From the NCBI GenBank assembly GCA_022616725.1, contig JAKEEH010000149.1, forward strand, positions 4,664 through 68,663: a stretch of DNA of 64,000 nt. Reading direction: 5' to 3'. Each line of letters opens with the position of its first letter. The stretch's first letter is position 1. Below the pieces are notes generated by a model. It did not search any database and had not been told where the DNA came from. It saw only the letters and a list, made by a program, of their open reading frames with translations. Both the position numbers and the translations under genes were made by a program. The stretch is from Limisphaerales bacterium (GTDB taxonomy: Bacteria > Verrucomicrobiota > Verrucomicrobiia > Limisphaerales > JAKEEH01). This document shows, piece by piece, positions 7,279 through 59,455 of this stretch.

Positions 7279-8079
7279 ATGAACCGCATCGATGAACGCT
7301 TTCTCCGCTTGCGTCAGCAGCGTGACAAAGGATTCATCGTTTATATCGGCGCGGGCGATCCAAATCTGCAGACGACGCGGCAACTTGCGCTTGGCTTCGA
7401 CAGAATTGGGGTCGATGTCCTGGAATTGGGTGTTCCCTTCAGCGACCCACTGGCTGACGGTCTCGTCAATCAACTCGCCGCCCAACGGGGACTGGAGTCC
7501 GGCGCCACGCCGCCGAAGGTCCTCGACACTGTCGCCGACATCCGCCGTAATTCGCAGATCCCGATCGTCCTCTACATCTACTACAATCTGGTCCATCATT
7601 ACGGGCTCGAACGCTTTGTGGCCGATTGCGCAAGATCCGGCGTCGATGGTCTGTTGGTGCTCGATTTGCCGCCGGAAGAATCCGCGGGCTATGAGAAGGC
7701 CATGGCGGCGGCAGGTTTGCGCGTCATTTACCTGGTCGCGCCGACGACTCCGGACGATCGCATCGCTCTGATCGTCAAGCGCGGCACTGGATTTATTTAT
7801 TATGTCTCCCGCGAGGGCGTCACCGGCATGCAGGAAAAAGTCTCCGCCAATATTGCCGAAATGACCGCCAAAATCCGTGCGCATGCAACCTTGCCAATCG
7901 CCGTCGGCTTCGGCATCTCCAATCCCGATCAGGCGCGGCTCGTCGCGGCGAATTGCGATGCTGTCGTGGTTGGCAGCGCCGTCGTGAATCAAATCGCTAG
8001 ACACGGCGAGGATGCGAAACTCGTCGAGCGCGTCCTGGAATTTGTTCAGCCTTTGATTCAAGCGGTTCGAAAGGCATGA
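7279..8079 (+). CDS. trpA: Tryptophan synthase alpha chain
   Basis: Track ORF 7165..8079. The start is chosen at ATG 7279 (MNRIDERFLRLRQQRDKGFIVYIGAGDPNL...LELGVPFSDPLADGLVNQ...YYVSREGVTGM...GFGISNPDQA), the canonical TrpA signature. No trpB is adjacent. Confidence 0.9.
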   Translation: MNRIDERFLRLRQQRDKGFIVYIGAGDPNLQTTRQLALGFDRIGVDVLELGVPFSDPLADGLVNQLAAQRGLESGATPPKVLDTVADIRRNSQIPIVLYIYYNLVHHYGLERFVADCARSGVDGLLVLDLPPEESAGYEKAMAAAGLRVIYLVAPTTPDDRIALIVKRGTGFIYYVSREGVTGMQEKVSANIAEMTAKIRAHATLPIAVGFGISNPDQARLVAANCDAVVVGSAVVNQIARHGEDAKLVERVLEFVQPLIQAVRKA

Positions 8080-12704: not shown

Positions 12705-12837
12705 AAAACTGAGTGATTAAATGTGTCACTCTCAACTCTCAACTCTGCACGCATCAGCCCCTTCTCAATCTAATCTTGCTCTTAATCTCAATCTTCGCAT
12801 CTTCGCGTCTTCGCTGTTGATTACCTCCCCATCGCAT

Positions 12838-19214: not shown

Positions 19215-22112
19215 GTGGTGAACGCAACTGAGTTCCGCATACGGAAGTGGGCGCTGACGTTTACCGTCGCCGCGTTGCTGGGCAACCCGCAGCCTGAAGC
19301 CTGGGCCGCTGAGACACGAACTCTCTGGACGACGTCACGCGTGTTCGGGTCCCCAAGTCCACCGGCGCCCTACGCGATTGAGCGACAGTTTCCCAAGCTG
19401 ACGTTTAGGAATCCGGTGGATCTGGCGCGGATGCCCGGATCAGATCGTCTCTTCGTGCTGGAACAAGGCGGCAAGCTTTTCTCGTCTATCAACCGGGCGG
19501 CCATCGAAAGCGCAGAGCTCGTGGTCGATTTTCGCAAGCATCATCAGCCGTTCGACAGCTCTTATGCGATCGCTTTCCATCCGCAGTTCAGTGAAAACAG
19601 ATTTATTTACGTGTGCTATGTCGAGCCGGGCGGCAGGACGAATGGTTCGTTCGTGTCGCGATTCAGAGTTGGGCAATCGGACCCGCCGACCATCGACCCC
19701 GCCACTGAACAGGTGGTTATTCGCTGGTTGAGCGGCGGCCATAATGGATGCACGCTCGCGTTTGGGAACGACGGCTTTCTTTACATCTCGACAGGGGATG
19801 CGGCAAGTCCCGACCCGCCGGACACCCCTTTCAACACCGGGCAGGACATCAGCGACCTGCTCGCGGCGATCCTGCGCATCGATGTCGATAAGACCTCTGG
19901 GACGAACAACTACGCCGTCCCGCCCGACAACCCATTTGTACGCACGACCGGCGCACGGCCCGAAATCTACGCCTTCGGTCTGCGCAATCCCTGGCGAATG
20001 AGTTTCGATGGCGCGTCCGGTGATCTTTGGGTCGGGGACGTGGGCTGGGAGCAATGGGAGATGATTTACCGGGTGAAATCCGGCGCAAACTACGGTTGGG
20101 CAATCACCGAAGGGCCGAACACGCGGGTGCGTGCCGACGTGCGGCCCGGCTCCGGGCCGATCCTGCCACCAATGGTCGCGCTACCGCATAGCGAAGCCGC
20201 GAGCATCACGGGCGGGATTGTTTATCACGGGAAGAAGCTGTCGAAATTGCGAGGCGCCTACGTTTACGGGGATTGGGAGACGGGGAAGTTCTGGGCCTTG
20301 CGTAATGACGGCGACAAACTGCTGTCGAACGACGAGCTTTGTGACACCACACTGAAGCCCGTCTCATTTGTGGAGGATCATGCGGGTGAGTTGCTGATTC
20401 TCGATTACAATGGCGGCATATATTCCTTCGTCCCGAACAGCGCCCAGCCGGCAAACCTTGCGTTCCCGCGCAAGCTGAGCGAAACGGGTTTGTTCACTTC
20501 ACTTGCTCCGCTCACGCCCGCGCCGGGCGTGGAATCGTATCGCATCAATGCGGAAATGTGGAATGACTACGCGACCGCTCAACACATCTTCGGCATCCCG
20601 AGCGAAGAGGCAATCGCCACCGCGGGCGGACGCGAAACCATTGCCGGGCGCATGTGGTATTTTCCTTCGAATACCGTCTTCGCGCGCACGCTCGCGCTGG
20701 AGATGGAGCGCGGCAAGCCTGCGACGCGGCGTTACATCGAAACGCAATTGCTTCATTTCGAGGGCCAGACCTGGAACGCCTATACGTACCGCTGGAACAC
20801 GGCCCAGAATGAGGCCGAGTTGGTCCCGGCCGACGGCGCAAATGAGACCTTTACCGTCACGGACCCGGCCGCGCCGGGCGGCCGGCGCAACATCCCCTGG
20901 CGGTTTCATAGCCGTGCTGAATGCCTCCGCTGCCACAACGTTTGGGCAGGCGAAACCTTGTCGTTCAACTGGTTGCAGTTGAACAGACGCGGCGAAATGT
21001 CCGAACTGAAGCGCCTGGAAGGGCTGGGCTTGCTCAAAATGAAAGGCTCGCCGAGGCCGCTTCCGCAACTCGCCGATCCATATGATGCATCACACGATTT
21101 GGCCGGCCGCGCCCGGTCGTGGCTGCACGTGAATTGCTCGACGTGTCACCGCAATGGCGCTGGCGGGGATGTCCCATCGTGGTTCAATTATGACCAGCGG
21201 ATCGACAGGATGCGGACCGTGGACGCCAAACCCGCCCGCGGAGATTTTGGAATTGAGGCCGCATGCGTGATCGCCTCGGGCGATCCGTATCGGTCAACAC
21301 TTTTCTATCGCATCAGCACGGAGGGTTCGGCCCGGATGCCGCACGTCGGCTCACGGGTGGTCGATGAGCGCGGCGTGCGCGTAGTGCGTGGTTGGATCGA
21401 GTCGCTGTCGGCGCAGACAAATCACGCCGAGTTAAAAAAGTTAAACGAGTTAAATTCGGACGATTTGTTAGTCCGCCAAACGCTAACCAATCTGCTCGGA
21501 GGCATGAGCGGCGCGCTCGCTTTGCTGGATTTCGCCTGCGCCGAGCCGCCCGAAAGCAGGTTGCGGGCGGATGTAGGGATGGTCGCCGGGGCCCACACGA
21601 ATGCGCTGGTGCGTGATCTGTTTCAACGGTTGCTGCCGCCTGAGCTGCGTCGCCAGACCCTGGGTCTGGAGTTCTCTCCGCAAACAGTGCTTACGCTCAA
21701 AGGCGATCCCAAACGCGGTGAGCAGGTGTTCACGGGCATCTCCCAATGTTCCCGCTGTCATATTTGCAAGGGAGCGGGTCGTGCCTTCGGTCCCGAGCTC
21801 ACCGACATCCGCAAGAAGTACGACCGGGAGCAAGTGCTGAATCAAATCCTCCAACCCTCGAAGGTAATCGCCCCGGAATTCAAAACTCTCATGGTCACGC
21901 TGCGCGACGGTACCGAGCTGAACGGCTTCATCATCAAACGAGATGCTGCTGAGCTAACGTTGCGCGATGAGAACCTGACCGACCATCGACTCAAGCTTGG
22001 TGATCTAAAGGAAACGCGCGAAGCTGCCCTGTCCGCCATGCCCGAAGGACTGCTCGCGCCCCTCACGGCACAGGAAGCGGCGGATTTGCTCGAATACCTG
22101 ATCACCCATTAA
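19215..22112 (+). CDS. PQQ-dependent sugar dehydrogenase-like beta-propeller fused to multi-heme/cytochrome c domains (PVC-type heme-binding C-terminal domain)
   Basis: 965 aa with a GTG start. GHNGCTLAFGNDGFLYISTGD and FGLRNPWRMSFD are glucose/sorbosone dehydrogenase motifs. Three CxxCH motifs are present (CLRCHNVW, CSTCHRNG, CSRCH). The tail is GPELTDIRKKYDREQVLNQILQPSKVIAPEF...LAPLTAQEAADLLEYL. Confidence 0.8.
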   Translation: MVNATEFRIRKWALTFTVAALLGNPQPEAWAAETRTLWTTSRVFGSPSPPAPYAIERQFPKLTFRNPVDLARMPGSDRLFVLEQGGKLFSSINRAAIESAELVVDFRKHHQPFDSSYAIAFHPQFSENRFIYVCYVEPGGRTNGSFVSRFRVGQSDPPTIDPATEQVVIRWLSGGHNGCTLAFGNDGFLYISTGDAASPDPPDTPFNTGQDISDLLAAILRIDVDKTSGTNNYAVPPDNPFVRTTGARPEIYAFGLRNPWRMSFDGASGDLWVGDVGWEQWEMIYRVKSGANYGWAITEGPNTRVRADVRPGSGPILPPMVALPHSEAASITGGIVYHGKKLSKLRGAYVYGDWETGKFWALRNDGDKLLSNDELCDTTLKPVSFVEDHAGELLILDYNGGIYSFVPNSAQPANLAFPRKLSETGLFTSLAPLTPAPGVESYRINAEMWNDYATAQHIFGIPSEEAIATAGGRETIAGRMWYFPSNTVFARTLALEMERGKPATRRYIETQLLHFEGQTWNAYTYRWNTAQNEAELVPADGANETFTVTDPAAPGGRRNIPWRFHSRAECLRCHNVWAGETLSFNWLQLNRRGEMSELKRLEGLGLLKMKGSPRPLPQLADPYDASHDLAGRARSWLHVNCSTCHRNGAGGDVPSWFNYDQRIDRMRTVDAKPARGDFGIEAACVIASGDPYRSTLFYRISTEGSARMPHVGSRVVDERGVRVVRGWIESLSAQTNHAELKKLNELNSDDLLVRQTLTNLLGGMSGALALLDFACAEPPESRLRADVGMVAGAHTNALVRDLFQRLLPPELRRQTLGLEFSPQTVLTLKGDPKRGEQVFTGISQCSRCHICKGAGRAFGPELTDIRKKYDREQVLNQILQPSKVIAPEFKTLMVTLRDGTELNGFIIKRDAAELTLRDENLTDHRLKLGDLKETREAALSAMPEGLLAPLTAQEAADLLEYLITH

Positions 22113-22173
22113 TTGCATTAATTGCGCCGGACGCTTGATTGGTTAGGAATTCGGATGTTAGCGTCTTGTGTCT

Positions 22174-22365
22174 TCCCGGAACTTTCATTAACACCCCACT
22201 TCAGTGGGGTGGCACGCACTTTCAGACCAGCGACCACCACGCCACCTCCAACCCATCCCGCTAAAGCAGGATGTTAATGCCCTCTGCGTCTCCGCGTTGC
22301 GGTGAGCCATTTCAGGAGTTTCTTCTACCATCAACATCCCGGCGGGCGTCCTCCCTTCAACCCTC
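22174..22365. repeat. Direct repeat, copy 1 (192 bp)
   Basis: tcccggaactttcattaacaccccacttcagtggggtggcacgcactttcagaccagcgacca...ccatcaacatcccggcgggcgtcct...ttcaaccctc. It recurs at 22556..22816 and contains the hairpin CCCCAC-ttca-GTGGGG. Confidence 0.8.
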
Positions 22366-22555
22366 TTAAGAAACTCGTTGCGGAAGTGTTTGAATCCCAA
22401 GAACTTGCAAAGAGATCGCGTTCGGTGGAATCGCGACTCTGTAACCCCCGACCTGCGGGCGAAGCCTCGGTGCAAAACAAAATCCAACTGGAGCGGGCTG
22501 ATCTCGTGCCGCGCGTTCGCCGATCCAAGGGTTCTCTGCGTACGCAGTCCAATCC

Positions 22556-22816
22556 TCCCGGAACTTTCATTAACACCCCACTTCAGTGGGGTGGCACGCA
22601 CTTTCAGACCAGCGACCAGTTTCCTTGACCCCTTTGGCCGCAGGCCAAAGGGGTCAAGGAAATTCCTACCACCACGCTACCTCCAACCCATCCCGCTAAA
22701 GCAGGATGTTAATGCCCTCTGCGTCTCCGCGTTGCGGTGAGCCATTTCAAGAGTTTCTTCTACCATCAACATCCCGGCGGGCGTCCTTCCTTCAACTCTT
22801 CAACCCTTCAACCCTC
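22556..22816. repeat. Direct repeat, copy 2 (261 bp = 192 bp + 53-bp palindromic insertion with TSD + two extra 8-mers)
   Basis: Collinear with copy 1 except for the insertion at 22619..22667 (plus a second ACCA) and 16 extra bp in the terminal cttcaacc 8-mer array. Confidence 0.8.
22619..22667. mobile_element. 49-bp palindromic micro-insertion (REP/MITE-like) with 4-bp direct duplication ACCA
   Basis: Arms TTTCCTTGACCCCTTTGGCC (22620..22639) and GGCCAAAGGGGTCAAGGAAA (22643..22662) are perfectly complementary (20 bp, 3-nt loop). It is absent from repeat copy 1, where the sequence reads gcgACCAccacgcc. Here ACCA flanks both sides (22615..22618 and 22668..22671). Confidence 0.65.
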
Positions 22817-22908: not shown

Positions 22909-23132
22909 ATGGAAATCATTGAACCTAAATTCGGCAGTTGAACCCCTAAAAACTCCGGATGTCATTTGAGTTGCAAGTACTTATGAATTCGCCACTTGTC
23001 ACCGAAAAAATGAACTGCGGAGCAGTTGGATCTCACTTGCTGGCAGCGGGTTGCGCCGCCGGAGGGATTTCAACTGCCGAATCTAGGTTGAAGCATTGAA
23101 GCAATCTCCTGCCCGTTCTGCGGCCAGACCTT
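22909..23132 (+). pseudogene. Disrupted 5' copy of the CPXCG-motif gene (interrupted by a MITE, then fused to a duplicated 3' tail of the 19215..22112 gene)
   Basis: atggaaatcattgaa (22909..22923) plus gcaatctcctgcccgttctgcggccagacctt (23101..23132) match the intact gene at 24628..24674. The promoter-proximal 75 bp upstream is also duplicated (22834..22908 versus 24553..24627). Confidence 0.75.
22924..23093. mobile_element. 170-bp MITE-like element with 19-bp inverted repeats and 7-bp target-site duplication CATTGAA
   Basis: Left end cctaaattcggcagttgaa (22924..22942). Right inverted repeat ttcaactgccgaatctagg (23069..23087), complementary at 18 of 19 positions. CATTGAA is at 22917..22923 and 23094..23100. 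Removing the element and one TSD copy regenerates atggaaatcattgaagc[a/g]atctcc exactly as in the intact paralog. Confidence 0.7.
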
Positions 23133-23194
23133 CCCCTCACGGCACAGGAAGCGGCGGACTTGCTGGAATACCGGAATACCTGCTCACCCATTAA
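23133..23194 (+). repeat. Relic copy of the last 54 nt of the 19215..22112 gene
   Basis: cccctcacggcacaggaagcggcgga[c]ttgct[g]gaata[ccggaata]cctg[c]tcacccattaa, compared with 22059..22112. There are three substitutions plus an 8-bp tandem duplication. Weaker similarity continues about 30 nt past the stop in both copies. Confidence 0.8.
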
Positions 23195-24471: not shown

Positions 24472-24588
24472 CAGCCGCTCGACCGACCTTCGCGCTCCGC
24501 TTCAACCCTTCAGCCCTTCAACTCTTCAACCCTCCCGTTTGAACGATTCAACGCTGGAGTGTGCCGCCTGCTCCCGCGAGCAATGAAA

Positions 24589-24627: not shown

Positions 24628-24807
24628 ATGGAAATCATTGAAGCGATCTCCTGCCCGTTCTGCGGCCAGACCTTTCAAATCCCCCTCGACACGACCCTGC
24701 CCTCACAACGCTTCACAGCCGACTGCGAGATCTGTTGCCGCCCGCTCGAAATCTCCATCCAATGCGAGCCAGGCGAAGTCCTTTCCCTCGAAGTCCAGGG
24801 CAGTTGA
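24628..24807 (+). CDS. CPXCG motif-containing cysteine-rich protein
   Basis: Track ORF 24559..24807, with the start chosen at ATG 24628. MEIIEAISCPFCGQTFQIPLDTTLPSQRFTADCEICCRPLEISIQCEPGEVLSLEVQGS carries CPFCG...CEICC, the family hallmark. Confidence 0.7.
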   Translation: MEIIEAISCPFCGQTFQIPLDTTLPSQRFTADCEICCRPLEISIQCEPGEVLSLEVQGS

Positions 24808-25051
24808 CGCTGATATCGCCCGAATCACAGAAGTGTAGCGGGCGGGGCAGGGCCTCGGCGCTTCACTACGTCATTCCTTCGCTTCCCTTGCGGCCTTCTG
24901 TGAGAGTTCCCTCCCAATCCGGCGGCCGTTGCCGTAATTGTAAATGCCTTATCAGGGGCCACTGTACAAACCCATCCAGCGCAGATCTGGAAACCGCGGA
25001 GCGCGACCTTATTTGCCGCCCCAGCCGGCGTCCCGCTGCCCGTTCAACGAT

Positions 25052-26209
25052 TCAACGATTTGACGATTCAACGATTTGCCCCGTCACCTTCTCCAATTGC
25101 GACGCGACCTGGAGCACGCCTTCCAGCAGGGTCTTCCAATCGGCTTCAGTGGTTTCCCAACCCGCGCTGAACCGGAGGACACGGCCAGCTTCCGCGGGAC
25201 TATAGCCCATTGCAGCGAGGACGTGTGAAGGTTGTTCTTTGCCACTGGCGCAGGCGGAACCGGTTGAAACGGCGTAGCCATGGCGATCCATCTTGACGAC
25301 CCATCGCTGCTGGCAATCGGCCTGAGGCATGACCACAGAAACGGTATTCCAGAGGCGTTCCTGGTTTTCGCCCACAATTGTTACGCCGGAGAGATGGGAG
25401 AGGAGTTGACGCTCGAATTGTTTGCGCCAGCCCAGGCGCACACGCTGCTCATTGAGAGCAAGGCTATGTTCCCTGGCTTCGAGAGCGGCCAGCATCGCCG
25501 CGACCCCGGCTACATTCTCGGTCCCGGGCCGGCGTCCCTCTTCCTGACGCCCCCCAAAGAGCAATGAATGAAATTTCCCATTGACCTTCAGGAAGCCGAT
25601 GCCTTTGGGTCCACCAAACTTGTGCGCGCACCCGCTGACGAATTCGCAGGCGCCGAGACTGCGCGCCGGCATCTTGCCGAGCCATTGGGCGGCGTCGCAG
25701 AACACAGGAACATTCCATTCACGGCAGAAATCGAGCACGTGCTGCCACGGCTGGAGGACGCCCGTTTCGTTGTTCGCGGCCATCACTGCCACGAGGCCGG
25801 GCGGCTCTTTGGGAAGTTCCTCGTGCAACCAGTCGATATCAATGACACCACTGCGATCCACGGGGATGAGCCGGAACCGGTCCTCAAAATAATGCGCGGT
25901 TGCGTTGAGGACACACGGATGTTCAATCGCGGAGATCCACACTTCAGCCCCGCCGGGCAGCGCTCGGGCAAGGTGGTGCAGGACCATGTTGTTCGATTCG
26001 GTCGCGCCGGAAGTCCAAACGATGTCCAGCGGATCGCAACCAAGATAGTTGGCCAACTTTACGCGCGCGGTTTGCAGGAGCATATCGGCGCGTGACCCGA
26101 TGCGGTGCGGACTGGAGGGATTGCCGACATACTTCTCCACCGCCTCCAGCCACGCCTCGCGCGCCTGGGGCAGGAGCGGAGTCGTCGCGTTATGATCGAA
26201 ATAGAGCAT
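25052..26209 (-). CDS. Cysteine desulfurase (class V aminotransferase, NifS/IscS-like)
   Basis: 385 aa. MLYFDHNATTP..., SGATESNN, SGCAHKFGGPKGIGFL (PLP-Lys), STGSACASG (active-site Cys loop). The last 8 codons and the stop lie inside the 8-bp repeat array 25042..25078. Confidence 0.9.
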   Translation of the reverse strand: MLYFDHNATTPLLPQAREAWLEAVEKYVGNPSSPHRIGSRADMLLQTARVKLANYLGCDPLDIVWTSGATESNNMVLHHLARALPGGAEVWISAIEHPCVLNATAHYFEDRFRLIPVDRSGVIDIDWLHEELPKEPPGLVAVMAANNETGVLQPWQHVLDFCREWNVPVFCDAAQWLGKMPARSLGACEFVSGCAHKFGGPKGIGFLKVNGKFHSLLFGGRQEEGRRPGTENVAGVAAMLAALEAREHSLALNEQRVRLGWRKQFERQLLSHLSGVTIVGENQERLWNTVSVVMPQADCQQRWVVKMDRHGYAVSTGSACASGKEQPSHVLAAMGYSPAEAGRVLRFSAGWETTEADWKTLLEGVLQVASQLEKVTGQIVESSNR

Positions 26210-51214: not shown

Positions 51215-51252
51215 AAGACACGAATTTCACGAATTCGTGAAATTCGTGTCTT
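51215..51252. promoter_or_regulatory. 38-bp perfect palindrome (putative operator) in a divergent promoter region
   Basis: AAGACACGAATTTCACGAATTCGTGAAATTCGTGTCTT, checked base by base and centred on GAATTC. It is built from four CACGAAT half-sites. It lies between the HAF gene start (50883, minus) and the mini-CSLREA gene start (51312, plus). Confidence 0.55.
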
Positions 51253-53819: not shown

Positions 53820-54608
53820 GTGAGTCAATTGGATGACATTCAGCGCGCGGCGCAGGAACAGTTTGGCCGTCAGAGCCACCGCTACGGACGGGGGCACATT
53901 CTGGAGAATATCGAAGACGTGCGAGCGGCGATTGATCCTTTGGATTTGAAACCTGGCATGAAGGCGCTCGACGTGGCGACGGGCGGCGGCCACACCGGTA
54001 TCTATCTCGCCAGCCTGGGATGTGACGTTACTCTGGCCGATATTGCCGAACCGATGTTGCAGCGGGCCGCAGCCGCAGCCGACGCGCTCGGATACAAGGT
54101 CAAAACCGAGCTGCACGCGGCGGAAAACATGCCTTACGCCCATAGCTGCTTCGACATCGTCACCTGCCGCGTTGCGCCGCACCACTTCAGCTCGCCTGAA
54201 GCGTTTATTGCCGAAACAGCGCGCGTCCTCGCTCCCGGCGGTTGGTTCGTCCTCATCGATGGCACAGTCGAAGATGGCCAGCTCGAGGCGGAGGAATGGG
54301 CGCATCAGCTCGAGAAACTCCGCGACCCCAGCCACAACCGACTGCTAACCCCCGGTCAATGGACCCGCCTTTGCAAGAGCAATGGCCTCAACGTCACGCG
54401 CACCGTCGTCACACCCTTCAAGCAACCTGACCTCCAGTGGTACTTCGAGACTGCGGCTACCCCGCTGGCGAACCGCGTTCGCGTCCGCGAACTGATAGCC
54501 AACGCCCCCGATTCCGCCCGCCGCCTCTTCCGCCTCGGCGAAGAAAACGGAAAGATCGTCTGGTGGTGGCAACGCCTGACCCTCGTCGCGCGCAAGCAGA
54601 CGATCTGA
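53820..54608 (+). CDS. Class I SAM-dependent methyltransferase
   Basis: 262 aa with a GTG start. Motif I is ALDVATGGGHTGIYLASLG, followed by FDIVTCRVAPHHF and LAPGGWFVLID. Confidence 0.85.
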   Translation: MSQLDDIQRAAQEQFGRQSHRYGRGHILENIEDVRAAIDPLDLKPGMKALDVATGGGHTGIYLASLGCDVTLADIAEPMLQRAAAAADALGYKVKTELHAAENMPYAHSCFDIVTCRVAPHHFSSPEAFIAETARVLAPGGWFVLIDGTVEDGQLEAEEWAHQLEKLRDPSHNRLLTPGQWTRLCKSNGLNVTRTVVTPFKQPDLQWYFETAATPLANRVRVRELIANAPDSARRLFRLGEENGKIVWWWQRLTLVARKQTI

Positions 54609-54853
54609 TCTCGACGAACGCCTTAGCTTTTCCCTCTCCCTCAGGGTTAGGGTGAGGGCGACTCGAATTTCGTTCGCTTCGTTCCTACGCTCTCTCCTGT
54701 GGGAAGCTCCGGCAAGCGCACCTGCCAGTTCGTGCCCGTCCGGAAGGACTTCGCTTCGTTCGCGGCTGATTAGAGAGTGACAAGTGTACAATATTATATA
54801 ATCTTTCGATAATTGTATGTTCATAATGCGCGCAATTCATTGAGAAAAACGTG

Positions 54854-54882
54854 GTTGCTTTTTAGCTTAAATTGTTGTATAA
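54854..54882 (+). promoter_or_regulatory. Near-consensus sigma-70 promoter (extended -10) inside the AT-rich segment
   Basis: TTGCTT (54854..54859), 17 nt, then TGTATAAT (TATAAT at 54877..54882). An ATG at 54889, 7 nt after the -10, opens a 41-codon ORF (MKHGNYNDDVPRNGVRTARRKAVCVHGMDRLAQGISKLEHF) that would be leaderless. Further TATAAT boxes are at 54796..54801 and 54905..54910. Confidence 0.35.
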
Positions 54883-55000
54883 TACTCCTATGAAACACGG
54901 TAACTATAATGATGACGTGCCACGAAACGGCGTAAGAACAGCCCGACGGAAGGCCGTTTGCGTCCATGGAATGGATCGGCTTGCGCAGGGAATCTCGAAA

Positions 55001-55088
55001 CTTGAACATTTTTGAACAAAATTGAACATTTTTGAACACGCACCTGTGAAAAATCTGAGCAAAATGAAGAAATTGAACAAAATTGAAC
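55001..55088. repeat. Phased TTGAACA direct repeats (10-bp period)
   Basis: TTGAACA starts at 55001, 55011, 55021, 55031 (exactly 10 bp apart) and at 55072 and 55082. The 55031 and 55082 copies are each followed, 3 nt and 0 nt downstream respectively, by CCTGTG. Confidence 0.8.
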
Positions 55089-55162
55089 ACCTGTGGGGGT
55101 GGGTGGGGTATGTTTCATTTTCCGTTTCCGCGTTGGCCAGGGGGTGGAAAAAAGCAGCCAAA

Positions 55163-55335
55163 ACCCTTCAACCCTTCAACTCTTCCACCCTTCAACCAAT
55201 CGAAACCGGAAAGAACCGGACAAAAAACCGGACAAACCTACCGCGCAACAGCCTTTCTACCAACCACTTACAAATATGGCATGGACTGGATTACCGATTC
55301 AACGAACTTTAACGATTTAACGATTCAACTAACTT
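55163..55335. repeat. 8-bp-period TTCAA arrays and AACCGGA triplet in the hydrolase leader
   Basis: cccttcaa|cccttcaa|ctcttcca|cccttcaa (55163..55194). AACCGGA at 55203, 55213 and 55225. gattcaac|gaacttta|acgattta|acgattca|actaactt (55295..55334), ending 5 nt before ATG 55340. Confidence 0.8.
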
Positions 55336-55339
55336 CCTC

Positions 55340-56917
55340 ATGACACCCGATCCTCGACATCCAATCATATACGTGCGCGGCTTCGCCGGAACCCAGGGCG
55401 AAGTGGAAGACACCGTCGCCGATCCGTACATGGGTTTCAACATTGGCTCGGCCAAATACCGGCAGATGTGGACCGGCGAGATCAAGCGGTTCTTCTTCGA
55501 ATCGCCCATGGTCCGGCTGTTCAAGGAGCATGAATATGACGACGTCTATGTCGATGGTATGGACCAGGTGCTGGATGTCGGCGCTTCGGAGCCGATCCCG
55601 TACCGATCTTTGATCATCTATCGCTACTACGAACCGGCCTCGAAACAGTTAGGCTCGGGCCGGCTGCCGGAAATGGAGGATTACGCCCTCGGGTTGAGCG
55701 ATCTCATCCTGCGCCTCCGCGACAAGGTTTGCGCCAACCCTGAGAACAAGATCAAACCTGGCGCATTCAGAGTCTATCTGGTCGCGCATTCCATGGGTGG
55801 CTTGATCTGCCGCGCCTTTCTGCAAAATCCGAAGCTCGGCGATCCTCAGGCCCGCGCCGTCGTGGACAAAGTCTTTACCTACGGCACCCCCCACAATGGC
55901 ATTGATTTCCGCCTGATCGGCAACGTTCCAGAATGGTTCAGTTTTCACAATACGAACGACTTCAACCGCGAACGCATGGCCGAGTACCTGAACCTCAAGG
56001 CCGAATACAAAGCCCAAAAGGGTGACAAAGACGTTAGCATCCTTAAAAACTTCGATCCGGACCGCCTTTTCAATATGGTAGGCACCAACGCCGGCGATTA
56101 CACCGTCGGGCGCGGCATTTCCCGCTTCCTGGCTGGCGAGACCAGTGACGGGCTCGTCCACATCAAAAACGCGACCACCCATGGCAAGTGGAACGGGCGA
56201 GAGATTTCTTCCCCTCGCGCGTTCGTTTATCGCAGCCACTCGGGGCACTTCGGAATCGTCAATTCCGAGGAGGGCTACCAGAACCTCACCCGGTTCTTTT
56301 TCGGCAACGTGCGGGTCGATGGCGTGCTCGAAATCGACGAACTGACGCTGCCCGAGAAGGTTCAGCGAGCCAAGGACGCCGGCAAAGAAATCCGCGCCTC
56401 CTACCATTTTGAAGTCATCGTCAGCGTGCGCGGCAAGCAATGGGAAATGCACCGGCGAACGGTCAGTGAGAACTCCGCTGTCTTTTGCCGCTACGACGAC
56501 CTGTTTGACAAGCGAACAAAGAAGGCGCTCCGCGAAAACAGCCCGCACCTGTTTTCGGCCTTCCTCGACAGTTCCAAACGCATCAACGCCAAACGCCCGT
56601 CACTCGGCTTTGCCATCGATCTGCGGGTCATGGTGCCGGACTACGTCGTCGATGGCTTTCTCTTTCTCGACGATCACTACGAAGGCGGGCACATCTACCG
56701 CGATCGTATTTATTTTGAAGCTACCCCGCCCTCCCGGCCGGGCGAGAAATGGTCTGTGAACTACGGATTCGAAAGTCAGACACCCAACGCCGCGAACACG
56801 CGCGCGACCCTGGAAAGGTCCACCGCGGGTGACATGTCGTTCATGATTCCCATTTTCCAGGAAACGCGTCCGGGGATCAGGGCGAACCTTCGCGTTACGG
56901 CCCGCAAGTGGGGGTGA
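55340..56917 (+). CDS. Lipase-like alpha/beta hydrolase (PGAP1/DUF676-like N-terminal domain) with C-terminal domain of about 200 aa of unknown function
   Basis: 525 aa. PIIYVRGFAG, nucleophile elbow VAHSMGG, candidate acid SDGLV and His in HSGHFG. No signal peptide. The C-terminal half has no recognisable motif. Confidence 0.7.
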   Translation: MTPDPRHPIIYVRGFAGTQGEVEDTVADPYMGFNIGSAKYRQMWTGEIKRFFFESPMVRLFKEHEYDDVYVDGMDQVLDVGASEPIPYRSLIIYRYYEPASKQLGSGRLPEMEDYALGLSDLILRLRDKVCANPENKIKPGAFRVYLVAHSMGGLICRAFLQNPKLGDPQARAVVDKVFTYGTPHNGIDFRLIGNVPEWFSFHNTNDFNRERMAEYLNLKAEYKAQKGDKDVSILKNFDPDRLFNMVGTNAGDYTVGRGISRFLAGETSDGLVHIKNATTHGKWNGREISSPRAFVYRSHSGHFGIVNSEEGYQNLTRFFFGNVRVDGVLEIDELTLPEKVQRAKDAGKEIRASYHFEVIVSVRGKQWEMHRRTVSENSAVFCRYDDLFDKRTKKALRENSPHLFSAFLDSSKRINAKRPSLGFAIDLRVMVPDYVVDGFLFLDDHYEGGHIYRDRIYFEATPPSRPGEKWSVNYGFESQTPNAANTRATLERSTAGDMSFMIPIFQETRPGIRANLRVTARKWG

Positions 56918-58495: not shown

Positions 58496-59272
58496 TCAAA
58501 TCCCGATCCGCTTCAGCAACTCCTGCGTCAACACCTCATACGCGGCGGCGCCAGCGCTGTATTTGTCGTAGTAGATGATCGGTTTGCCGAAGCTGGGCGC
58601 TTCCGCCAGCCGCGTGGTGCGCGGAATCACCGTCTCGAACACCGCCTCCCCAAAATGCTTTCGCACCTCCTCAACCACCTGCTGCGAGAGCCGCGTCCGC
58701 CCGTCAAACATCGTCATAACGACGCCGGTAAGCTTTAAGCCGGGGTTCACCCCTCCATCGCGAAGCTGGTTCATCAACCGATTGATCATCGAAATGCCTT
58801 CCAGCGCGTAATATTCGCACTGCAACGGAACTAGAAGCCCTTCGGAGGCGGCAAAGGCATTTAAGGTGAGAATGCCGAGCGATGGCGGGCAATCGATCAT
58901 CACAATGTCAAAACGGCCACTTTGCACTACCGGCTCCAGCAGGCTCCTGACCCGCTGCAAATGGTTCTCCATGCGAACGATCTCGACATCCGCGCCGCAC
59001 ATATCCAACTCACTGGGAATGATTTCCAGGCGGTCGAAGGCAGTCTTTTGAATTCGATCCAGGAGGTTTCCCTCGCCGAGCAAGGGTCGATAAGCGCTGC
59101 CGCCTTCCGTTTTCTCGAGTCCCAAGCCGCTCGTGGCGTTGGCTTGCGGGTCCAGATCAAAGAGCAACATGCGCTGGCCGACTGCGGCGAGGCATGCAGC
59201 GACATTCACAGCCGTCGTTGTTTTTCCAACGCCGCCCTTCTGATTCGCCACCGCGATTACGCGTGTCTGCAC
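58496..59272 (-). CDS. parA: ParA/Soj-family ATPase
   Basis: 258 aa with a GTG start. Deviant Walker A VANQKGGVGKTTT, then DLDPQANAT and DCPPSLG. No parB follows. Confidence 0.9.
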   Translation of the reverse strand: MQTRVIAVANQKGGVGKTTTAVNVAACLAAVGQRMLLFDLDPQANATSGLGLEKTEGGSAYRPLLGEGNLLDRIQKTAFDRLEIIPSELDMCGADVEIVRMENHLQRVRSLLEPVVQSGRFDIVMIDCPPSLGILTLNAFAASEGLLVPLQCEYYALEGISMINRLMNQLRDGGVNPGLKLTGVVMTMFDGRTRLSQQVVEEVRKHFGEAVFETVIPRTTRLAEAPSFGKPIIYYDKYSAGAAAYEVLTQELLKRIGI

Positions 59273-59356: not shown

Positions 59357-59455
59357 GGCCGCATAAATGCGGAACTCCGAGACGTCACAGCAATCGAATG
59401 CACAACAAGATTCCTTTCGCCAATTGAATCGTCGGAGTTCCGCATTTATGCGGCC
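59357..59455. mobile_element. 99-bp element with perfect 24-bp terminal inverted repeats (MITE/REP-like)
   Basis: GGCCGCATAAATGCGGAACTCCGA (59357..59380) and TCGGAGTTCCGCATTTATGCGGCC (59432..59455) are exact reverse complements. Each arm also contains its own hairpin CCGCA-taaa-TGCGG. It lies in the parA/sulfatase divergent intergenic region. Confidence 0.6.

Follow-up and report, generated by a model that had tools for sequence, protein, structure and literature searches.

The 731-bp interval between a methyltransferase gene and a hydrolase gene in the genome (a MAG) of an uncultured soil bacterium of Verrucomicrobia subdivision 3 appears to be a spacer lengthened by repeated short tandem duplications, specific to its lineage and not composed of conserved protein-binding sites, a reading to which we give a probability of roughly 0.55. 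Duplication would have acted on units of 8, 10, and 12 bp, mostly on a TTCAA/TTGAA core, and the leader of the hydrolase gene would be a local case, the densest one, of a process active genome-wide. The AT-rich left half of the leader would supply the promoter of the hydrolase gene, and the G-poor, C/A-rich right half would be transcribed as a 5′ leader unable to fold, which may aid ribosome loading at a start codon in a setting where genes mostly lack a Shine-Dalgarno sequence.

The sequence under study consists of a 64-kb stretch, hereafter the window, and the next 9 kb rightwards on the same contig, 73 kb in all. Most genes in the window lack a Shine-Dalgarno sequence, GC skew tracks gene orientation, and a tRNA/tmRNA scan returned zero matches. 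The neighbors of the leader are the methyltransferase, the hydrolase, and a DUF1501 protein. Downstream of the methyltransferase stop, the spacer keeps a normal composition and then switches at position 54776 to AT-rich DNA; this switch, drawn from 54776 to 55095 in the preliminary description, is borne out by a GC content of 0.381 versus a window mean of 0.588 (sd 0.035, 320-nt windows). The windowed-GC check proposed there was run, and within the window GC is lowest in this block. Weaker dips, to ~0.465–0.50, accompany other promoter-bearing intergenic regions at 50.9–51.3 kb and 59.3–59.6 kb. The coordinates of all features are collected in Table 1.

Table 1. Features of the spacer, of the downstream gene, and of related repeats elsewhere in the window.
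Feature	Position	Strand	Details
Interval from methyltransferase stop to hydrolase start			731 bp; non-coding spacer, lineage-specific
Spacer part after methyltransferase stop	54609..54775		GC 0.59, normal; includes imperfect hairpin 54635-54661
AT-rich block	54776..55095		Lowest GC of the whole 64-kb window
Best sigma-70-like promoter candidate	54855..54883	+	TTGCTT (54855-60), 17-nt spacer, TATAAT (54878-83)
41-codon ORF, unsupported as a gene	54890..55015	+	ATG 7 nt after -10 box
Four perfect TTGAACA heptamers	54998..55038	+	Exact 10-bp spacing
Decayed TTGAACA 10-mers, then two perfect copies	55047..55089	+	Perfect copies at 55073, 55083
G-poor, C/A-rich stretch	55150..55339	+	G 12%, C 32%, A 36%; reaches start codon
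Octamer array CCCTTCAA	55162..55197	+	Period 8, 4.5 copies, 85% matches
AACCGGA(C) x3	55204..55236	+	Starts 55204, 55214, 55226
Degenerate octamer array (A)CGATTYAA	55291..55329	+	Period 8, 4.6 copies, 75% matches, indels
Hydrolase gene, downstream of leader	55340..56917	+	525 aa; PGAP1-like alpha/beta hydrolase
Sister octamer array CCTTCAAC	22789..22815	+	Adjoins pseudo-copy of CPXCG gene upstream region
Sister octamer array CTTCAACC	24500..24533	+	~95 nt upstream of CPXCG gene
Sister octamer array TTCAACGA / ACGATTCAACGATTTG	25043..25078	+	Between two convergent genes
Fresh tandem duplication CATTAATTG x2	22107-22125
Fresh 8-bp tandem duplication TTGAAGCA x2	23088..23103	+	Intact paralogue: single copy at 24639
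Fresh tandem duplication GGAATACC x2	23165-23180

The AT-rich block carries the three TATAAT boxes previously described, at 54797, 54878, and 54905. The central one belongs to the best promoter candidate, in which the -10 hexamer agrees with the consensus at six of six positions; the label near-consensus was overstated, since the -35 hexamer agrees with TTGACA at only three of six. A promoter scan of the region yielded two sites versus 0.9 ± 1.0 in shuffled sequences. Within the right part of the block lies the TTGAACA array, which can be written as the unit TTGAACAWWW. All six heptamers noted earlier are present (starts 55002, 55012, 55022, 55032, 55073, and 55083; the earlier coordinates were off by one), four of them exactly 10 bp apart. 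In the block of four, TTT and AAA spacers alternate, which amounts to a 20-bp unit present twice at 95% identity. Decayed copies span 55047–55072 between the perfect blocks, and both perfect blocks terminate in CACCTGTG. The array combines perfect and decayed copies in a hierarchy from 10-mer to 20-mer.

Three further arrays follow on the way to the start codon. The 8-bp-period CCCTTCAA array is present, as previously reported, and the three AACCGGA repeats are likewise present, again one nucleotide away from their earlier coordinates; the AACCGGAC repeats are spaced by 10 and 12 bp, and their stretch includes a 12-bp duplication (AAAGAACCGGAC / AAAAAACCGGAC). The (A)CGATT(C/T)AA array is real and has the 8-bp period first described; it stops 10 nt before the ATG of the hydrolase gene, with no Shine-Dalgarno sequence after it. 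Tandem Repeats Finder (TRF) arrays in the leader begin at 55002, 55050, 55162, 55210, and 55291 and together occupy 186 of 564 nt, versus 2.9 ± 8.3 nt and a maximum of 52 nt in 500 dinucleotide-preserving shuffles. Helical phasing, which the preliminary description had extended to four arrays, applies to one of them: the TTGAACA repeats alone have a 10-bp period and the others 8 or 12 bp, so the four arrays are not a helical-phase phenomenon.

The claim that this repeat density is the highest of the window holds, although the octamer family also occupies three other, unrelated sites in it. The CCCTTCAA array matches those at 24500 and 22789, and the (A)CGATTYAA array matches the one at 25043; these three sister arrays are the leader's only similarity to the rest of the window. 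One of them precedes the CPXCG gene, a small zinc-ribbon gene at 24628–24807, and the one at 25043 overlaps the final codons of a minus-strand ORF (25052–26209). The octamer arrays have a TTCAA core in common. Across 21 non-overlapping arrays, the TTCAA/TTGAA core occurs in 6–7, including five of the six best-scoring ones, with ~2% per array expected by chance. Recurrence without a link to particular genes, which the preliminary description had set against its own interpretation, was found for the octamer arrays. It was not found for the TTGAACA array, of which no further example exists in the 73 kb. The 9 kb added on the right side of the contig contain no arrays.

Direct traces of duplication are found elsewhere in the window. 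Three fresh tandem duplications of 8–9 bp (TTGAAGCA, GGAATACC, and CATTAATTG) distinguish paralogous copies that are 96–98% identical; the genome therefore produces such repeats readily. A single MITE-like insert occurs in the window (164 bp, 22924–23087); TTGAA forms the target duplication on its flanks and is also found within its terminal repeats.

Comparison with relatives shows no conservation of the leader. Hydrolase orthologues with 85, 83, and 72% identity have leaders of only 32–104 bp free of arrays; the loci compared were L004, L007, and L008, and a conserved leader was rejected on this ground. Orthologues of the CPXCG gene, at 70–71% identity, have no arrays either. The related hydrolase loci are not syntenic with the locus studied here; the absence of the leader from them is therefore lineage specificity, not loss under relaxed selection. 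Two Logan contigs from other sequencing runs and samples are identical to the leader over 55080–55345, with no copy-number variation in the octamer arrays relative to the window. Both contigs begin exactly at 55080, within the TTGAACA array, which may hint at copy-number heterogeneity of this array or at a branch in the assembly graph.

The hydrolase itself was described earlier as having a lipase-like head followed by an additional C-terminal domain, a description that is loosely supported by an alpha/beta-hydrolase head with a GHSMG elbow and a beta-rich C-terminal domain. The AlphaFold model, built from 22 sequences, reaches a pLDDT of only 59, and a Foldseek search with it weakly retrieved lipases with an extra C-terminal domain, among them BlEst2 (6wpx; E = 1e-6, TM 0.17), which backs no more than the lipase-like label. 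PADLOC defence-system models found nothing in the protein.

At the RNA level, the stretch upstream of the start codon stands apart from the rest of the window. Positions 55150–55339 are its most G-poor 190 nt, with a C/G ratio of ~3.2–3.4 in 78-nt windows. Around the hydrolase start, the segment from -60 to +30 has a predicted minimum free energy of -4.5 kcal/mol, the weakest among 17 genes (-6.5 to -30.8 in the rest), and positions 55291–55380 form the least structured 90-nt window on either strand of the 64 kb (-2.5 versus a mean of -26.3, sd 6.5). For the hydrolase gene, both the promoter and the length of the transcribed leader are predictions from the sequence. Any function of the arrays would be generic, in the form of unstructured RNA and phased A/T tracts, and is probably secondary to their mutational origin; the earlier admission that no function can be assigned to the leader was fair. 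Placement just 5′ of a start codon applies to the (A)CGATTYAA array and not to those at 25043 or at 12728–12814, the latter being further short arrays whose C-rich strand is antisense to the flanking genes. Because one octamer array sits between convergent genes and the arrays at 12728–12814 are C-rich in antisense, a role as unstructured leader is not general.

A more specific role for the same RNA would be to load Rho or to offer a platform to a protein of the S1, Csp, or KH type that binds single-stranded RNA, acting together with the 41-codon ORF in attenuation or translational control. The predicted RNA of 55150–55339 has the properties of a Rho-utilization site (at least ~80 nt that are C-rich, G-poor, unstructured, and untranslated), its last array ends close to an ATG that has no Shine-Dalgarno sequence, and a post-transcriptional role has been proposed, not demonstrated, for similarly placed TAACTGA repeats of Beggiatoaceae (PMC4679880). 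We nevertheless consider this rather unlikely: it assumes transcription of the leader from the upstream promoter candidate, the 41-codon ORF has neither homologues nor a coding-like composition, conservation is absent, and the sister arrays are not consistently found in 5′ leaders or on the sense strand of the next gene. Control at the DNA level, with the TTGAACA heptamers (4 + 2, in 10-bp phase) forming a one-face array for a transcription factor, most obviously a response regulator of OmpR/PhoB type, that would control the hydrolase gene, we judge to be unlikely. OmpR/PhoB boxes are direct repeats of 6–7 bp with a 10–11-bp period, sometimes four or more in number, and six perfect 7-mers, four at exactly 10 bp with A/T spacers, resemble them in length and spacing. 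In other phyla, triple TTGAACA repeats lie just upstream of good promoters (at L017, TTGACA-18-TATGAT follows ~20 bp downstream) or within a conserved non-coding element of three Phycisphaerales genomes (L014, L071, and L106). The leader, however, lacks the promoter geometry, regulon, and conservation of such sites. Neither block is followed by a usable -10: the promoter scan yielded no site downstream of the arrays, the best candidate, TTGAAC to TATGTT, has a 20-nt spacer, and nothing lies past the first block. The perfect -10 boxes are all upstream, so that the array would be inside the transcript. There is no adjacent regulator gene, no second array in the 73 kb, and no conservation in relatives, and decayed copies lie between perfect ones. 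A scan of a genome collection for three TTGAACA-N3 units retrieved more than 118 loci, and most of the matches listed are minisatellites of Bacteroidota in varied contexts; a metagenome scan for TTGAACA with A/T spacers gave 79 loci, all with a GC content of 0.17–0.50, from unrelated low-GC organisms and none like this lineage. Among the matches listed, TTGAACA 10-mer arrays are ordinary minisatellites at more than 190 unrelated loci across phyla. With such loci elsewhere and a single array here, a TTGAACA regulon was rejected, and the OmpR/PhoB assignment of the preliminary description stands only as far as the repeat spacing.

The composition of the block also led to the suggestion of foreign or mobile DNA, either as the remnant of an element or as an iteron-type site for replication or partition associated with an orphan ParA-type ATPase gene (58496–59272) ~3 kb downstream. 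The abrupt GC drop to 0.38 at 54776, the absence of the leader at related loci, and small mobile elements in the genome, such as the 164-bp MITE-like insert, are consistent with this origin, and the lineage specificity of the leader is the part of the suggestion that survives. We regard it as very improbable given that searches of 72,556 plasmids and 50,697 phages found nothing similar to the leader, that genes for an integrase, a transposase, or Rep are absent from its vicinity, and that other promoter regions of the genome are AT-rich too. The best inverted repeat of the leader (12 nt, 92%, 285 nt apart) is at chance level, and beyond the octamer arrays it has no copies in the window; a MITE or insertion-sequence remnant was accordingly rejected. 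Iterons of plasmid and chromosomal origins are direct repeats of ~17–22 bp in AT-rich DNA, accompanied by a Rep gene or DnaA boxes and by an unwinding element. The leader resembles them in having direct repeats in AT-rich DNA and differs in its 10-bp unit, as opposed to the typical ~20 bp, and in the absence of a Rep gene; two unrelated genes separate it from the ParA gene. No DnaA box with at most one mismatch occurs from 53.4 kb to the window's end, and the leader has only two-mismatch matches. The iteron assignment does not hold on these grounds, and a replication origin was rejected, with no DnaA boxes and a GC skew that follows gene orientation. Equally remote is the idea of an unannotated gene within the block, for a small RNA or a small protein, with expression driven by a TATAAT promoter independently of the hydrolase gene. 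As described earlier, an ATG 7 nt past a perfect -10 box does open an ORF of 41 codons (54890 to 55015), and an 8-nt inverted repeat (ATGAAACA / TGTTTCAT) brackets 54890–55118. Against a structured RNA, Rfam 15 gave zero matches in the whole window at gathering score and only two chance-level matches (E above 5) on 54500–55500 with E up to 10, and the fold of 54888–55125 is no better than that of shuffled sequences (z = +0.39; 129 of 200 shuffles equal or better). The peptide belongs to no family: among 1.8 billion representative proteins, exhaustive searching with phmmer gave no convincing homologue, the sole match being a marginal one to a repetitive protein (E = 2.4e-4), and the GC3 of the ORF, 0.45, compares with 0.61–0.76 in real genes. 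Both the structured small RNA and the small protein were rejected, and the ORF does not qualify as the leaderless gene initially suspected.

Tandem duplication, our preferred reading, has difficulties of its own. The six perfect TTGAACA copies, the alternation of TTT and AAA, and the common CACCTGTG end could be marks of selection and not of a young age, and undirected slippage alone fails to explain the common TTCAA core. The leader is like bacterial VNTRs made by slippage in its head-to-tail units, its mixture of perfect and decayed copies, its 10-/20-mer hierarchy, and the fresh duplications between paralogues; it is unlike ordinary VNTRs in holding five arrays within 340 bp and in a pentamer core common to separate loci. 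This clustering and this core amount to more order than undirected slippage predicts. One conceivable, though again unlikely, explanation is a directed process that makes or expands 8–9-bp tandem duplications with a preference for TTCAA/TTGAA, the resulting arrays being co-opted as unstructured, Shine-Dalgarno-independent leaders or as platforms for regulators that bind single-stranded nucleic acids. Such a process may be tied to a transposable element that targets TTGAA, the motif seen at both the flanks and the terminal repeats of the 164-bp MITE-like insert.

Short tandem repeats that form intergenic families are the closest known parallels. In heterocystous cyanobacteria, the STRR (short tandemly repeated repetitive) heptamers are genome-wide, non-coding, and lineage-specific, and are of use for marking strains but are not known as regulators; the leader arrays share their tandem, non-coding, and lineage-specific character, with a different unit length and sequence and with 73 kb as the extent seen here. 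In marine Beggiatoaceae, TAACTGA repeats form intergenic head-to-tail sets of 2–6 copies, many sets per genome, often a few nucleotides from a start codon without a Shine-Dalgarno sequence; they are lineage-restricted, and their function is undemonstrated (MacGregor 2015, PMC4679880). The leader arrays are similarly short, head-to-tail, intergenic, lineage-restricted, and near such a start codon. They differ from the TAACTGA heptamer in being octamers and decamers with a TTCAA/TTGAA core, in occurring in Verrucomicrobia with several units side by side, and in that only one array abuts a start codon. Judged by their sequence, they are of the same kind as STRR and TAACTGA repeats, with head-to-tail units of 7–10 nt in at least two copies in non-coding DNA and a core that recurs at several unlinked loci within the 73 kb examined, and they represent a different family, as the units CCCTTCAA, CGATTYAA, TTGAACAWWW, and AACCGGAC differ from TAACTGA and from the STRR heptamers.

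If the ordinary explanation by tandem duplication is right, dense and phased-looking repeats 5′ of a gene need not be regulatory, and their apparent design mostly vanishes once orthologous loci and the remainder of the genome are set beside them. If duplication were instead directed and its products co-opted, the arrays would be the counterpart in Verrucomicrobia of the proposed TAACTGA-repeat network. The TTCAA-core octamer arrays, together with the high rate of 8–9-bp duplication, add a phylum to the few bacteria listed with STRR- or TAACTGA-like repeats. The arrays also produce the least structured predicted RNA of the region, at a start codon that lacks a Shine-Dalgarno sequence, and so offer a concrete case in which to ask whether such repeats aid translation start in bacteria that seldom use Shine-Dalgarno sites.

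The 731-bp interval between the methyltransferase and the hydrolase genes can be subdivided into three parts. The proximal part has a normal GC content and is followed by an AT-rich part that carries the TATAAT boxes and the TTGAACA 10-mer array. Windowed GC bears out the AT-rich composition claimed in the preliminary description, with a value of 0.381 that is the global minimum of the window (mean 0.588, sd 0.035, 320-nt windows). The third part, where the AACCGGAC repeats lie along with two octamer arrays, is C/A-rich and G-poor (G 12%, C 32%, A 36%); no other 190 nt of the window contain so little G. On the 3' side of the hydrolase come genes for a DUF1501 protein and for an orphan ParA-type ATPase. 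The SAM-binding domain of the methyltransferase is hit by PADLOC model mad2 (mads_2) at E = 2e-20, probably a generic domain match, with other defence genes absent next door.

Features of the interval and fresh tandem duplications (window coordinates)
Feature	Position	Strand	Remark
Class I SAM methyltransferase	53820-54608	+	
Interval part 1	54609-75		normal GC, proximal
Interval part 2	54776-55095		AT-rich
TATAAT boxes	54797, 54878, 54905		
TTGAACA (starts)	55002, 55012, 55022, 55032, 55073, 55083		
Interval part 3			ends at start codon
CCCTTCAA array	55162-55197		
AACCGGA (starts)	55204, 55214, 55226		
CGATTYAA array	55291-55329		
PGAP1-like alpha/beta hydrolase	55340-56917	+	525 aa
Duplication TTGAAGCA x2	23088-23103		single TTGAAGCG in intact gene
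Duplication GGAATACC x2	23165-23180		single CGAATACC at end of gene 19215-22112
Duplication CATTAATTG x2	22107-22125		single copy at 23188

The repeat arrays described earlier are all present, at coordinates shifted by one. Together, tandem arrays cover 186 of the 564 bases of the leader (54776-55339), compared to a mean of 2.9 ± 8.3 and a maximum of 52 in 500 dinucleotide shuffles. The first TTGAACA block is a duplicated 20-mer (95% identity), and a decayed continuation of the 10-mer lies between the two perfect blocks. The proposed phasing by helical turn holds for the TTGAACA array, the only leader array with a 10-bp period (autocorrelation peak at lag 10 in 54998-55089), but not for the octamer stretch 55150-55339, which peaks at lag 8. 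Two contigs from other sequencing runs, both with an identical hydrolase, start exactly at 55080, within the second TTGAACA block, as would be expected if the population varies in the number of 10-mer units.

We favor, with a probability of about 0.55, a spacer that is specific to the lineage and has been lengthened by short tandem duplication; it probably holds the promoter of the hydrolase gene together with a leader of unusually little structure. The closest non-identical hydrolase relatives (85, 83, and 72% identity) have gene neighborhoods that differ from the window's and upstream leaders of 104, 49, and 32 bp, respectively, none of which contains the arrays, arguing that the leader is specific to the window's lineage. 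Sequence pieces duplicated at 96–98% identity at ~22.0-24.7 kb serve as an internal control for the duplication step. Three fresh 8–9-bp tandem duplications are visible there only through comparison of paralogous copies, so the genome makes them about as fast as unconstrained DNA acquires substitutions. Such events are a sufficient source for the arrays and suggest that short duplications arise unusually often in the window's genome. The nearest known counterparts are the Beggiatoaceae TAACTGA direct repeats (PMC4679880) and the cyanobacterial STRR repeats; the units differ from both, placing the leader arrays in the same kind yet outside both families.

Tandem duplication does not account for the TTCAA core that the arrays have in common, nor for six TTGAACA copies being perfect. 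Among 21 non-overlapping arrays of period 6–12 in the whole window, six carry a TTCAA/TTGAA core (seven counting the CGATTCAA array), including five of the six best-scoring, where chance predicts ~2% per array. A 164-bp MITE-like element (22924-23087) with 19-nt terminal inverted repeats (CCTAAATTCGGCAGTTGAA / CCTAGATTCGGCAGTTGAA) sits inside a pseudo-copy of the CPXCG zinc-ribbon gene, flanked by a TTGAA duplication where the intact paralogue at 24628 has a single TTGAA; the single-stranded DNA of the element folds at z = -4.0. This target duplication (n = 1) is the sole hint to a possible TTGAA/TTCAA preference.

The repeats are in part peculiar to the leader. A second TTGAACA array is found neither in the window nor in the 9 kb of contig that follow, but octamer arrays recur, and a BLAST search with the leader as query hits, elsewhere in the window, only the CTTCAACC (24500), CCTTCAAC (22789), and TTCAACGA (25043) arrays. 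These sister sites lie upstream of the small CPXCG gene, alongside a pseudo-copy of the 5' part of that gene, and between two convergent genes; CPXCG orthologues at 70–71% identity lack the arrays. The surrounding 22.1-24.5 kb is a mosaic of repeated segments and pieces of genes, with two copies (22171-22364 and 22553-22799; 97–98% identity) of a ~200-bp repeat carrying a CACCCCAC/GTGGGGTG hairpin and terminating in CCTTCAAC units, the second copy being split by a perfect 20+20-nt palindrome (22620-22662). Elsewhere, adjacent arrays of ACTCTCA (x2.7), TCTCAATCTTAA (x2.8), and ATCTTCGC (x3) lie between anmK-like and pgsA-like genes (12728-12814), with the C-rich strand opposite both genes and the window's highest C/G ratio. 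A perfect 38-bp palindrome (AAGACACGAATTTCACGAA/TTCGTGAAATTCGTGTCTT, 51215-51252) lies in AT-rich DNA ahead of a small ORF and the gene of a beta-helix protein, and a perfect 24-nt inverted repeat (GGCCGCATAAATGCGGAACTCCGA, 59357-59455, arms 51 nt apart) lies in the divergent ParA-type/sulfatase gene region.

Other readings of the leader are less probable. The TATAAT boxes, the TTGCTT-17-TATAAT candidate, and the ATG at 54890 opening a 41-codon ORF are as first described, but the -35 element matches just 3/6 consensus positions, and a promoter scan of the leader gave no significant enrichment (2 sites versus 0.9 ± 1.0). It is most improbable that this ORF marks an unannotated small gene; a search of 1.8 billion representative proteins places its peptide in no family, and its GC3 is 0.45 versus 0.61–0.76 for 16 window genes. 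Rfam has no match in the leader or the window, the scan gave no tRNA or tmRNA, and the predicted fold of RNA 54888-55125 is no more stable than those of shuffled sequences (z = +0.39). Foreign DNA, which the compositional break had been taken to suggest, or iteron DNA is just as improbable, with no plasmid or phage similarity of the leader and no DnaA boxes with ≤1 mismatch near it. The helical period would suit a transcription-factor array in the TTGAACA block, which we consider doubtful; a specific RNA-level device is also unlikely, though slightly less so. Scanning one genome per species for TTGAACA-N3 x3 gave >118 loci among the matches listed, most of them long 10-mer minisatellites of Bacteroidota, commonly with other short arrays on their flanks, and a few directly upstream of good promoters or within 5' leaders. 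When metagenomes were scanned with only A/T spacers allowed, 79 loci came up, all from low-GC organisms and none resembling the window's lineage. The TTGAACA loci of other organisms are heterogeneous and do not indicate a common function. Three Phycisphaerales genomes (L014, ~7770-7850, - strand; L071; L106) have in common a conserved non-coding element, TTGAACA x3 spaced by 10 bp and then (G/C)TTTCG.GA.TTTTGTTTGT(G/A)GAT(A/G)CTAGCTT, with GCGCAAGTTTGCTT ~90 nt beyond it in L014 and L071; it could be a promoter plus small RNA of Phycisphaerales.

The right half of the interval, if transcribed, is predicted to be unable to fold. Positions -60 to +30 around the hydrolase start have an MFE of -4.5 kcal/mol, the weakest of 17 contig genes (others -6.5 to -30.8), and 55291-55380 is the least structured 90-nt stretch of the 64 kb on either strand (-2.5 versus a mean of -26.3, sd 6.5). 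Most window genes lack a Shine-Dalgarno sequence, a situation in which initiation is mainly determined by the lack of structure around the start codon; Rho loading sites are likewise C-rich, G-poor, and unstructured.

The gene downstream belongs to a very large, well-conserved family without an assigned function, with >4,700 matches at ~59% identity across Nitrospirota, Planctomycetota, Burkholderiales, and Verrucomicrobiota, and with neither a characterized member nor an NCBIfam model. Its AHSMGG elbow is invariant, and ~190 columns are invariant in an alignment of 22 sequences, a strikingly tight conservation for a protein of no assigned function.
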